Shown here piece by piece: positions 27,301 through 36,300 of a stretch of DNA of 60,000 nucleotides. The DNA is from Malacoraja senta. Its lineage: Eukaryota. The position numbers and the translations under genes were made by a program. The notes below the pieces were generated by a model. It saw only the letters and a program-made list of their open reading frames with translations. It did not search any database and was not told the origin of the DNA. How positions within the stretch are numbered: position 1 is the stretch's first letter; every line of letters starts with the position of its first letter. The DNA lies in NCBI GenBank assembly GCA_038087875.1, contig CM075989.1, positions 17,920,001 through 17,980,000 on the forward strand, written 5' to 3'.

Positions 27301-30300
27301 TTCTCATTTTGTGAAATAGGAGTGAGGAAATAAAAATTCCTCACCTTTGAACTATCTTTAATCGGACTTCAGTGTTTAGAATTTAATCCTTAATCCTTTA
27401 TCTGTGCACAATGGATGGCTTGACTATATCTTGTATAGACTTTCCGTTGACTGGATGGCATGCAAATAAAGTAAACTAAATGTAGTGCTGGATCGCAAGT
27501 AAAAACAACTTTATGAAGATCTAGCTTGAACATCATGTTCAACATTTTTGAAACTTTCCAGCCTTTTTAAGCCATTCTTATGCACAAGTGGCAACAAGTT
27601 ATCAGGCAGGTGCAGCATGGATAGAAGGAAGATGGCATAAAGACTTAATAGGGTTGGAGTTTAGAAATTAGTAAGTATAGTACAGGGTACAGTTTGGTGA
27701 TGCCACATCTGGAGCACTGCATGAATGGATCAGTGTGCAGTTGAGGCCACATTTGGAGTCTATGCTTCAATTGTACAGGGTGCAGTTAAGGTTACACCTG
27801 ATGGACAGATGGGACCAGTGTAGCTGGGACATGTGAGCCTGTTTCCACACCGTATCACTCTGACGGACTCGTATTTTCTTGTATTCTGACCTCATTGCAT
27901 ATTTTCACACAACATTGGAGGAACTCAGCGAGTCACAGCATCTGCTGAGGGAATGGACAGACAAGTTTTCGGGCTGGACTCTTCTTCGCACTGAAATATC
28001 GTCTGTCCATTCCCTTCACAGATGCCTGACCTGCTGAGCTCCTTTGGCACTTTGTGTTTTGCTCAAGATTCCAGCATGTGCAGTTCCTTGTATCTGCATA
28101 CTTTTAAAATTGGTTTCTTTGCATATAATGCTTCTGTTGAGTGGCCTGTGCAGCAACACGAGAAAAAACTATAAAGATGCTACACTAAACATTAACAGTA
28201 TATATTTCGAGCATAATAGTGGGTTTTCCTTATTCTATGGACATAAATCTTATAAATCAATAATTTTACTCCTTCCTATTCCTCAATTTTACTAAGCCTT
28301 CTCATTTGATTAATTTCTAGTAAATGGCCACATTCCAAAAAAATTAAATTCCAAACTGGCAATGAATTGTGATTAGATACTTTTATATGGGGCACTTGGT
28401 CATGCAACTAATCTAGATGCTGACAGTTTGGTTTAATACTCATTATGATAGGAACCAATGATCATAATACACAACACAGCCATTTCAAAATGACCTGTAT
28501 ACTATTCCTTTCTCACAGCAGAATTTGGGGTGGGGGAAACCGTAGAAAACCCATGCAATCACGGGGAGTACGTACAAACTCTGTACCGACAGCACCCGGG
28601 TCTCTGGCGCTGTAAGGCAGCAACTCTACCAACTCTGCGCCATTATGCTGCCCTACAGTTTTTAGATTTAATATTTAGCATTGTAATAACGATCACATTT
28701 TTTTGAGTGGAGGTAATTGAATATTTGCCTTACTGCTTGGTCATAAATCAAGCCTGATTATAAATCTGTTTGTATATTGTCAATTATTTTTCTTTTCCTT
28801 TTGTTTAGGAGGTGGAATGGGTGGAAATTTCAGAGGACCCATGGGCGGCGGAATGGGGAACACTTGTATGGACCCAATGGCTTCTGCATTATTAGGTTTG
28901 ACTACTTCCCAGTTCAGATGTTTAATAACTTTGGGGCTCGAATCTTAAATCCAGAAGTGTTAGCTGCGTTTCCTATGGAGATTTGTATTCATGGGGAGGG
29001 GTGCAGTGGTATGCTTTTATGTGGATGGAGACAAAAATATTGGGATGTTGCTAGAGTTCACTGCACAGTGGCCTTTCTGCTATAAAATATGTTCTTAATG
29101 TTTGAAATATCTTGCATAGAAATCTTACCTCTATGTGGTGAGTAATCCTGAATGTGAATGTAAGCTGTAATGTATTTTCATGCTGGGCTGATAAGTCTAA
29201 CTTTTTCACAGCCTATTTCAGTTCTGTTAAAGCAATATGGGTAAATATAATGTTGCCACTGACAATGGTGCAGAAGTGACACACTGCAGCATTAGAAATG
29301 CCAGAGCACAGTTGGAGCAAATAGACTTCTATTGTTACTGTAGCATGCTAGAGGATTTTCTCTGGTTGCCACTTTAAAATGAACCCTGTAAGATGAAATC
29401 TTACAGTATTTCAAAAGCTTTCTCATCTCGCTACTAGTCAGAATCTGAGTTCACCATTTTTTTTCTGAAAGGCAGCACTCTATACTGCTTTGAAGGATCA
29501 GTCAAGATCATCCCCTCTCCCATCATAGATGAGGCCCTCACTCATGTCTCCTCGGTGCTCCGCCTTGCTCCCCTAAGTCGAGACAGAGACCCTCTAGTAA
29601 TTACCTTGGTTTAATACTCATTATGATAGGAACCAATTATCATAATACACAACATAGCCATTTCAAAATGACCTGTATACTTTTCCTTTTTTCACTGCAG
29701 AATTTGGATGAATTTGGTGCAAAATAAACATAGTTATGCATAAGCTGAACATTAATCGTAATGTTTCCATTTGCTAGCATTGACAATCCTCCATGCTGAA
29801 TTCTTCCGTCTTTAAAATAAAAATGGATAGAGCTGATTGTTTAAAATGTATTTGTTTTCAAGCCTCTTTTAAATACTGAAAATCAGATTATATTTCCCTC
29901 TAGCTTTCCTCTGTGCGCACTGATTGTAGAAGCTGTGCACTATATTCATGACACTGGTCACCTTTGGAGTGGGATGTTTTGCCCATACCATCTGCTGATG
30001 TAAATTAAATGGTTGATGGAGGTTTCCTATCGGGGAGATGTTTAGCACAATTTGGCAGCATTCAGTTACAACATATTTAGAGGATATTGTTTTGCTTAAA
30101 GACTTTTAGCTGAAACTGGACCAAATGGGACCCGTTCCCCCAACGCAATATTCCACCACTCGCCCATTTCCCTCAATGCAACCCATTCCCCCAACGCAAT
30201 ATTCCACCACTCACCCATAGCCCCCAACTGCGCAGGCGCGGCTCATTTCCCCTCATCCTGCTGCACTTCCTCCCCCTTTTCATCCCCCCCTCTTTCCCCT

Positions 30301-33300: not shown

Positions 33301-36300
33301 ACAATTTGGCAACATTCAGTTACAACATATTTAGAGGATATTGTTTTGCTTAAAGACTTTTAGCTGAAACTGGACCAAGTGGGACCCGTTCCCCCAACGC
33401 AATATTCCAACACTCACCCATTTCCCTCAATGCAACCCATTCCCCCAACGCAATATTCCACCACTCACCCATAGCCCCCAACTGTGCGGCGCGGCTCATT
33501 TCCCCTCATCCTGCTGCACTTCCTCCCCCTCCTTTTCATCCCCCCCTCTTCTTTCCCCTCTCCTCCCCTCCCCTCCCCCACTCCCTCCCTCCATAACCCC
33601 TCTCCCCTCCCTACCTCCTCTCCCTCTATCTCCCTGCTCCCCCACGCCTCACCTCCCCTATCCCACTCGCCCACTAAACACAATGTTTAAATAACATTAA
33701 ACAACAGTCCTCTCCCTATCCTCTTCCCCTCCCCACTCCCTCTCCTTACAACAATAACAATCTTTCATTGCATTGTCTTTGTTAACATTGTAACCACTTT
33801 TTTTTTTAAAGAGCAATCTTTTATGTAAATGAGTTTCGGGATCCCATTGTGACGTCATAAGCTGCTAACTCAGTGCAGATGCAAGTGGATTTTCTCAAAG
33901 TGAGGTTTATAAAGTTTAAAATGTGAATAATGTAAAAGATACCATCAATCTGAACGTAATTTGATGAAAACACACCACAGGACAATGGTGAACAAGGTGG
34001 TCCAAAAATTGTAGCGCTATCCTGTACAATTTTGGCATAATTTCTGGATCACACTCACAGACAGTCGAACATAATAACAAACAAGAAGAGAGTTGCTGTA
34101 AGGCAGCAACTCTACGCCATTGTGCTGCCCTACAGTTTTTAGATTTAAGATTTAATATTTAACATTGTAATAACGATCACTTTTTTTTGAGTGGAGGTAA
34201 TTGAATATTTGCCTTACTGCTTGGTCATAAATCTAGCCTGATTATAAAAATCTTTTCAAGTGAGTTTTGAACAATGTAACATTTTGCTGTTCAAAATGGT
34301 TGTATATTGTCAATTATTTTTCTTTTCCTTTTGTTTAGGAGGTGGAATGGGTGGAAATTTCGGAGGACCCATGGGCGGCGGAATGGGGAACACTTGTATG
34401 GACCCAATGGCTTCTGCATTAAGTAGGTTTGACTACTTACCAGTTCAGATGTTTAAAAACTTTGGGGCTCGAATCTTAAATCCAGGATACGTTTCCAAGA
34501 AGTGTTAGCTACGTTTCCTATGGAGATTTGTTTTCATAGGGAGTGGTGCAGTGGTGTGCTTTTATGTGGATGGGGACCAAAATATTGGGATGTTGAAGTG
34601 ACTTACAATGCAGCATTGGAAATGCCAGAGCACTGTTGGGGCAAATAGACTTCTATTGTTACTGCAGCAAGCTAGATGATTTTCTCTGGTTGCCACTTTT
34701 TAGATGATCCCTGGTCAAGTGGCAACAAGGCTTTTTACTTGTAATGTTGGTCAGTTGAACTCCCTCTTACAGTATTTCAAAAGCTCTCTCATCTTGCTAC
34801 TAGGCAGAAGCTGAGTTCACCATATATTTCTGAAAGGCAGCACTCTATACTTCTTTGAAGGATCAGTCAAGATCATCCCCTCCCATCATAGATGAGGCCC
34901 TCACTCATGTTTCCTCTGTGCTCCGCCTTGCTCCCCTGAGTCGAGACAGAGACCCCCTGATAATTACCTTTCACCCCATCAGCCGTCGCATGCAACTCAT
35001 AATCCTCCGACATTTTCGCCACCTCCAACAAGATCCCACCACTAGTCACATCTTCCCATCTCCACCCCTTTCAGTTTGCCGCAGAGACCGTTCCCTCCGC
35101 AACTCCCTGGTTAATTCATCCCATACCACCCAAACCAGCCCCTCCCCGGGTACCTTCCCTTACAACCGCAGGAGATGCAACACCTGTCCCGATACCTCCT
35201 CTCTCGACTCCGGGGATCCCAACGGTCCTTTCAGGTTAGGCGGAGGTTCACTTGCACCTCTTCCAACTTCATCCACTGTATCCATTGTTCAAGATGTGAG
35301 CTATTATACATCAGCGAGACCAAACGTAGACTGGGCGATCGTTTCGCTGAACACCTTCACTCAGTCCGCCTGAACGTACCTGATCTCCTGGTTGCTAGGC
35401 CGTGGGCCGAAGTGCCAAAAGGGCTCTCGATTTTATCTTTCGTGACCCATGTCTGGTATCTACTTGAAATTTGGCACTGATTTCGATAAAACTTAATTGA
35501 TAAGGAATTCGTAACTCGTCAGTGCAAAAAGTTGCACACTGATTAATTAAGCTAATTAGAAAAAGTAACAGCACCCTCTTGTGCTCAATAATATATAGCT
35601 GTATATGGGAACATTGAATACGGGGCTGCCGCAGAGGTCACGGGTTTCACCGGCTCCTGAACCCGCCTAATTAATGGGTGAGGGCAGATCCTGTGCATTC
35701 CCCAGTTTACTGAACCCCACTGATTGCCAGTGTGCAGAGTGGGGGTCATGGCCATAGTGGGATTGAGGCAGTGCCAGGCTGGGGGAAGGCTAAGATATCT
35801 TCCACTTAGAGGAAAATGCCTAACCTTAACTTGCCCCCCTTCCAGAGCTGCCCACGGCTGGAGCTGGAGCCCGGCTGCAGGCTCATTACGTGCGGCTGCT
35901 CAGCGTGTCCATCTCGACCAGCATGCCCTTCTGGATCATCAGCGGCAGCCCACCCGATGCCACGATTACACCTAATGTCAACATGGTGGGGAGCAGCACT
36001 GCCCTGCGCACCGCCCGGGCTGCCTTCAACACCTTCATAGCGCCGGCTCCGTCAGTCCGCACGCTCGCTCGCTCGCTGCAACACCGGCCGGCCGACAGCC
36101 CAACTGACTGACAGACCTCCTCTCTTTCCCCTGCTGCTCAGCTCGGCCCAGGGCCGCTTCAGCATCCCCATAGCGCCGGCTCCGTCATGGAAGTCCTCAG
36201 AAAAAAAACCACGCCTGCGGGCTGGATGTTTTCGGGTTACGGGCAGGATCTGGGCCCTGGGCCGTAGGTTGTCGACCCCTGTCATAACCCTAACTCTCTT

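Follow-up and report, generated by a model that had tools for sequence, protein, structure and literature searches.

How many lengths can one protein take when a single optional exon stands several times in its gene? The question is raised by a 60,000-nucleotide (nt) stretch of the skate Malacoraja senta (GenBank assembly GCA_038087875.1, contig CM075989.1, positions 17,920,001 to 17,980,000; hereafter the window, in whose own numbering positions are given), where an exon encoding part of a Gly/Met-rich region of MYEF2 occurs three times in tandem. From the DNA letters alone, an original prediction had described a triplicated MYEF2 exon, two copies of which had lost their donor and passed to the next in-frame one, and had taken the locus for possible exon birth in progress. 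We assign a probability of roughly 65% to the reading developed here, a rajid-specific array in which an ancient exon, symmetric and of phase 1-1, stands repeatedly within the RRM2-RRM3 linker and whose copies would be included additively. The Gly/Met-rich middle of MYEF2 can probably be made in several lengths.

The three exon copies lie on the plus strand and are all of phase 1-1: copy A at 28809-28895 (87 nt), copy B at 31963-32049 (87 nt) and copy C at 34339-34422 (84 nt). No fourth copy was found in the window. All three have intact acceptors, as had been claimed, and an identical 27-nt pyrimidine tract followed by AG stands ahead of each. Over the first 83 nt copies B and C do not differ, and copy A departs from them at a single site (GGA to AGA, Gly to Arg). 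Copy C ends at 84 nt, again as predicted, with the donor TAA|GTAGGT, and this type is ancestral, as the original prediction had assumed, being that of all annotated copies in Amblyraja and Leucoraja (peptide junction ALR or ALS); the A/B end, considered as the ancestral state, was rejected on the same comparison. In copies A and B the AG after position 83 is replaced by T, with loss of the TAA|GT donor, and the GT at +4, which in copy C is out of frame (88 nt), falls in frame at 87 nt. The predicted exon end in these two copies is ...GCATTATTAG, with the shifted donor TAG|GTTTGA. The frame arithmetic of the original prediction is confirmed by all eight inclusion combinations of the three copies, each of which can be read without interruption as far as the stop at 37998. 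Every copy also contains, at 57 nt, a rival in-frame donor, CTT|GTATGG, and no Rbfox motif pattern was found near the exon copies.

The assignment to MYEF2 stands as well. The window encodes a three-RRM protein on the plus strand in 17 coding exons, counting the repeated exon once; the first coding exon lies beyond the window. Compared with MYEF2-like proteins, the model reaches 94% identity in Amblyraja radiata (566/603) and in Leucoraja erinacea (564/603), against 82% in Rhinoraja longicauda (495/603), and the tree gives (window,(Amblyraja,Leucoraja)) as sister to Rhinoraja with 100/100 support. RRM1-3 of the MYEF2/HNRNPM family are all aligned in the model; Pfam RRM_1 matches its last exon and three stretches of protein P0003. 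The tail-to-tail neighbour of MYEF2 is a series of SLC24A5-like exons on the minus strand (42187-49378), with an Na_Ca_ex match on one of the two exons tested (42187-42561), an arrangement that we take to be that of human MYEF2 and SLC24A5. A MYEF2 motif lies in E9-E10, and the linker between RRM2 and RRM3 is Gly-rich and of low complexity, the two together being a reported family hallmark (PMC5513350). No second, conserved rajid MYEF2 was seen among the best 120 of 1195 hits. Judged by sequence, the gene is the MYEF2 orthologue and groups with skate MYEF2. The array is flanked upstream by E14 (16158-16271, phase 1-1, matching the Amblyraja protein) and downstream by E16 (37407-37618), E17 (37702-37753, RRM3) and the last coding exon E18 (37835-37998, RRM3 and stop). 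A contig of read run X18, which is RNA by guess, is spliced E16-E17-E18 at the boundaries predicted by the model (contig 15 for E16 and for a 51-letter unlisted gap at E17).

Each exon copy sits in a larger duplication unit on the plus strand. Alignment, with self-BLAST for the first unit, places unit 1, with copy A, at 28402-29604 (1.2 kb; 1919 nt deleted after 28528 and 44 nt after 28769), unit 2, with copy B, at 29605-32836 (3.2 kb; the most complete, its first 25 nt missing at the A-B junction) and unit 3, with copy C, at 32837-35000 (2.2 kb; deletions of 880 and 223 nt relative to unit 2). Units begin and end at CATGCAACT(A/C)AT, found at 28401, 32836 and 34989, and are circularly permuted relative to the exon. 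The boundary microhomology measures 12 nt: CATGCAACTAAT at the left boundary (28401-28412), and CATGCAACTCAT both at the B-C junction (32836-32847), where a unit end is joined to the next unit start, and at the right boundary (34989-35000). At the A-B junction about 58 nt have been lost across the same motif. Outside the exon the units differ at 49/893 (A-B), 38/595 (A-C) and 117/1864 (B-C) positions, or 5.5-6.4%. The common donor change suggests that A and B are sisters or converted. Unit 2 also holds, on the minus strand at 30924-31509, the 3′ fragment of what we take to be a CR1-type long interspersed element (LINE), with an (ATAG)n-like tail, lying in a presumably short interspersed element (SINE)-like sequence. 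The original prediction had counted this insert among the unit differences; the fragment is present, but it is not callable as specific to unit 2 because units 1 and 3 carry deletions over its site. Where the insert is truncated (31420-31509), a 39-nt inverted repeat resembles an inversion formed on insertion.

The reality of the array was examined in four read runs, compared with unit 3 and the downstream exons (32837-38150) at 88% likeness. SINE and LINE contigs dominate the tables, in which 15/658 joints, 12/52 indels and 40/324 letter rows are listed; within that scope the B-C junction, splices from copy to copy and the A/B donor are neither seen nor excluded. In DNA run X1, a unique contig of 935 nt shows no difference from the window. 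Within the listed letter rows this run has an alternative letter at 14 of 17 unit 3 sites, in 14/14 cases the letter of unit 1 and/or unit 2, and at 13 of these 14 sites depth is left for the C letter. A letter found in unit 2 only occurs at 34937, and one found in unit 1 only at 32947, the latter weak for lying four letters from the contig end; at 33039 and 33045 the letter of unit 2, though expected, did not appear. Positions 32929-32930 have two separate contigs, and 34665 and 34670, where A and B agree, have a single one at roughly twice the depth. At 34786 the sole contig, otherwise C-like, has the A/B letter; therefore another haplotype exists. Contig depth in the exon bin (16.4 in X1 vs. 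5.4-8.1 in unique bins; 176.5 in X18 vs. 66.5 in the E16 bin) is compatible with several copies, but it is no copy number, cannot rank parts of the gene and was given no weight of its own; the X1 ratios are noisy (expected 2.0-2.9, seen 1.9-3.3).

The triplication is real. False duplication of haplotypes in the assembly is favored in one respect, in that run X1 is possibly the source sample of that assembly and hence not independent, which also counts against leaning on this run for the array as a whole. It is nonetheless disfavored because the three states stand about 6% apart, compared with no difference in 935 unique letters, and it has to contend with a true end-to-start junction, with copy-diagnostic letters in separate contigs of a depth like that of the unique flank and with arrays in the assemblies of other species. 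We consider it scarcely credible. The argument of the original prediction, that the differences between units speak against an assembly artefact, is upheld by the same data, and an assembly artefact was rejected on the three states, the junction and the other species' arrays.

The array is older than this species because several copies are also modelled in Amblyraja and Leucoraja and apparently present in the skate of DNA run X5. RefSeq models of A. radiata (XP_032906263-272) and L. erinacea (XP_055517109-114) hold four 28-residue copies, with individual entries of 4, 3 and 1 copies in the former and of 4 and 3 in the latter, and 11 of the 12 full rajid MYEF2 entries have 3 or 4. One copy is present in Rhinoraja, Pristis, the two stingrays Hemitrygon and Mobula, sharks, chimaera and coelacanth. 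Copy number in relatives, which had been named as a check, thus distinguishes A. radiata and L. erinacea from Rhinoraja, rays and sharks, and an exact internal repeat of at least 14 residues occurs in 11/141 proteins, all from those two species. Run X5, from another skate (run X18 being from the same organism), differs from the window at 36 of 920 letters of unique, partly coding sequence (3.9%). It has three contigs at 32929-32930 and three at 34665-34670, on either side of the exon, and 16 of its 17 listed letters are the unit 1 and/or unit 2 letter; the array unit seems to be multiplied in this skate too. Taken from these comparisons, the array is old and common to skates, and a single origin with that of Amblyraja and Leucoraja is likely. 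Both of those species have the pattern TCMDI, TCMDI, ACMDP, ACMDP (2+2). A Gly-to-Cys change is carried by 4/4 Leucoraja copies and by no Amblyraja copy, which points to homogenisation after the two split.

The exon is older still. Among 114 further MYEF2 entries, a 24-residue segment is present in 59, absent in 35 and unmatched by the pattern in 20; it is therefore lacking in 35/94 matched non-rajid entries, human isoform 2 included. The skate exon occupies the position of the 72-nt cassette exon of mammals and lizards, and by that position the repeated exon is the old cassette. Exon birth caught in progress, as the original prediction had it, is not upheld: the copies have diverged by 5.5-6.4%, which exceeds the 3.9% separating the window from the run X5 skate, and an ancient exon is arrayed in that skate and four times over in two more. 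Recent species-specific birth was rejected on these grounds.

An array of this kind could have arisen in a few steps. The common 12-nt boundary suggests microhomology-mediated tandem duplication of about 3 kb of intron, exon and intron. Unequal crossing-over between units would then have given three units here and four in Amblyraja and Leucoraja, and conversion or repeated turnover would keep exon copies alike within a species. As in the predicted models of the two relatives, splicing here would be additive rather than mutually exclusive, each copy adding 28-29 residues and leaky skipping producing a ladder of isoforms. Copies A and B would have lost the ancestral GT by the AG-to-T change and probably be included, less often than C, through the weaker donor formed by the former +4 GT. 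What this would probably alter is the length of the linker and its valency (condensate or partner binding), and by likeness to hnRNPDL (PMC6996132) it may tune assembly. The linker in the window model measures 251, 279 or 337 aa with zero, one or three copies, and it reaches 366-370 aa in the four-copy skates vs. 283-293 aa in five other cartilaginous fishes. Several points weigh against this reading as a whole. The multi-copy isoforms of the relatives are predicted (XP_) models, in which near-identical exons invite mis-mapping; unit orthology with the Amblyraja and Leucoraja copies is presumed from proteins; and the three-way odd-one-out counts (14/14/22, p = 0.28) favor no order of duplication.

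We favor additive inclusion because the introns between copies are 2.3-3.1 kb long and every combination is in frame. The earlier claim that anything from no copy to three could be spliced in stands as regards frame and agrees with relatives' RefSeq models of 1, 3 and 4 copies, which are themselves predictions. Were the copies used mutually exclusively, like tandem duplicated exon substitutions, the general tie between tandem duplication and mutually exclusive choice described in two papers (PMC9013439, PMC9741552) and the single copy of Amblyraja isoform X8 would find a place. Introns of 3067 and 2289 nt, however, impose no steric block, there is no frame clash (8/8), B and C would differ in their last one or two residues only, and the high copy number of nearly all full rajid entries speaks for joint inclusion. 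Exclusive use is very improbable. The predicted proteins of Amblyraja and Leucoraja also contain copy-to-copy junctions. Whether A and B are spliced at the shifted donor is a question of its own, and we answer that they probably are, because exon and tract are conserved above their flanks and E13 uses a G|GTTTG donor. With columns within 12 of long gaps masked, variable columns among the three copies number 1/82 in the exon, 1/109 in exon plus tract and 48/558 in the flanks (Fisher p = 0.013 for exon and 0.002 for exon plus tract, each vs. flanks; sliding-window scan p = 0.045), and A vs. B alone gives 1/109 for exon plus tract (p = 0.016). E13 (15146-15268; compared with Amblyraja isoforms X1, X2 and X6) has the native weak donor GAG|GTTTGG, with a 5/9 match to the donor consensus, the same as the A/B donor, and an in-frame alternative 9 nt upstream. 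The weak donor is used in 7/9 Amblyraja proteins, the alternative in one, and E13 is skipped in the remaining one; therefore a donor of the GTTTG class works but leaks. The contrary view is that only C is spliced, A and B being dead copies whose donor is lost, whose in-frame GT is a one-in-three coincidence and whose bodies are kept alike by conversion from C. Much that weighs against our preference belongs here: the A/B donor ties for the weakest in the gene and is equalled in score by the 57-nt competitor; upstream of its pyrimidine tract copy A is short of 44 nt, among them one candidate branch point, and it has a missense change; A vs. B over the exon alone (1/82) is not significant (p = 0.056); concerted evolution is evident in relatives, and conversion alone can keep dead copies alike; and no A/B donor joined to a downstream exon occurs among the 15/658 joints listed, all of which are in repeats. 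On the other hand, homogeneity is limited to exon and pyrimidine tract and ends at the donor change, with flanks 5.5-6.4% apart, E13 relies on the same class of donor, and copy A retains a branch-like motif, CTGAT, at -52, the intervening letters being free of AG. Splicing of C alone is rather unlikely in our estimate, though its chance is not negligible. Run X24, possibly RNA, had no cover on any exon and is evidence neither way, and copy B extended into its intron, used as a protein query, gave four candidates and no hits.

Even if all copies are included, linker length may have no purpose, and the rest of the protein bears on this. Over 222 RRM positions (window exons 150-13865 and 37407-37998), rajids differ from Heterodontus at 39-44, Rhinoraja at 10, chimaera and coelacanth at 23-24 and seven other sharks and rays at 1-7. 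Relative-rate counts with Pristis as outgroup are 35 changes in the window vs. 5 in Rhinoraja (p = 2e-6), with 39:4 for Amblyraja and 38:4 for Leucoraja. The rajid linker is poorer in arginines (11-12 vs. 16-18) and richer in cysteines (5-10 vs. 1). The RRM rate fits relaxed or positive selection, which are not separable here. That the array is tolerated, near-neutral structural drift under relaxed constraint, with copies included and linker length unselected, is a serious possibility, if somewhat short of an even chance. It draws on those RRM counts, on the coding differences from run X18, of which four of the seven listed are non-synonymous, on the variation between three and four copies and on SUP-46, which reportedly still enters stress granules without its non-conserved low-complexity part (PMC5513350), a finding that weighs against a role for linker length. 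Conservation of exon bodies above flanks in all copies and persistence of the array in at least three, probably four, skates are harder to place under drift. Drift is compatible with the splicing part of the additive-array reading and differs from it on purpose alone, and the confidences given to the two overlap. A stronger proposal, that rajids remodelled the only MYEF2 they have, with about 40/222 changes in RRMs that hardly vary in sharks and rays, Arg loss and Cys gain in the linker, and a selected, concertedly evolving array serving as a splice-controlled dial of length and valency, possibly redox-sensitive via Met/Cys, two copies of which were here rescued by a frame-restoring donor shift, seems doubtful to us.

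The array is not a new mechanism and is already present, unremarked, in two RefSeq annotations. The MYEF2-like models of A. radiata and L. erinacea represent the same gene with the same tandem exon and additive isoforms, but have four 84-nt copies with the ancestral donor type and the variants TCMDI or ACMDP, whereas the window has three TCMDP copies, two of them with a shifted 87-nt end. The amniote cassette (human 576-aa isoform 2 vs. the 600-aa form) shares position after GFGDSFG, symmetry and optional use; it is present in zero or one copy, and no repeat was seen in any non-rajid entry examined, in contrast to the skate array. Roughly 10% of the genes in animals have exons duplicated in tandem, a figure that one paper takes from a 2002 study (PMC9013439). 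Curated human exon substitution events are reported to be mostly ancient and mutually exclusive (PMC9741552). Such substitutions resemble the skate array in consisting of homologous tandem exons made by genomic duplication; they tend to lie in folded domains (PMC9741552, PMC9013439), while the array belongs to one lineage, is to all appearance additive and sits in a linker of low complexity. In hnRNPDL, too, an RNA-binding protein has more or less disordered sequence depending on optional exons, but there whole Arg/Tyr-rich regions go in or out with a measured effect (PMC6996132), whereas in skates near-identical Gly/Met/Cys units are stacked and are known from sequence alone. No literature on MYEF2 in skates or elasmobranchs, or on the array, was found in a search that left subscription journals and supplements outside. 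Tandem exon duplication is common and is usually framed as mutually exclusive choice in folded domains; the skate array is lineage-limited, apparently additive and placed in the disordered linker of a conserved splicing regulator. Close relatives with copy numbers of 1, 3 and 4, a donor shift and homogenisation within species form a natural series for asking whether MYEF2/HNRNPM linker length is selected or drifts. Thanks to letters specific to each copy, data of kinds that already exist could answer the splicing question, and fast rajid RRM evolution is an unexpected companion result.

Other features of the gene were noted. Together with the repeated exon, E10-E14 (14144-16271) make up an unbroken series of six exons, all symmetric and of phase 1-1. 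Codon shuffles comparing copy C with the other six linker exons single out E12 alone (2/300, uncorrected), with E10 and E11 borderline, and were not used. Window E13 lacks three residues (GNM) found in Amblyraja and Leucoraja, and Leucoraja E16 (P0011, P0012, P0016, P0017) has a small extra in-exon duplication, with MGPG twice. An 8-nt microexon in RRM1 (7983-7990) is required for frame in the model. The E7-E8 intron (13154-13815) has a U12-type signature, with a GTATCCTTT donor and a TTCTTAAC branch motif near the acceptor, by what we take to be the U12-type consensus.

The introns and flanks hold further repeats. The intron before copy A contains an endogenous retrovirus-like element on the minus strand (16736-26729), with long terminal repeat (LTR)-like repeats at 16736-17968 and 23868-26729 that are 90-93% alike and an integrase-bearing frame (rve, MLVIN_C) at 20315-21742; its second LTR-like repeat is interrupted by a LINE-like piece (about 24177-25816) with a weak zf-RVT match. 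Just past the right boundary of the array lies a 1.3-kb element (35438-36760) with 34-nt inverted repeat ends and high copy in the runs compared, probably a non-autonomous DNA transposon. The intron that follows E2 has a locally repeated element, within which lies a 48-nt minisatellite of 8.8 copies (2613-3032).

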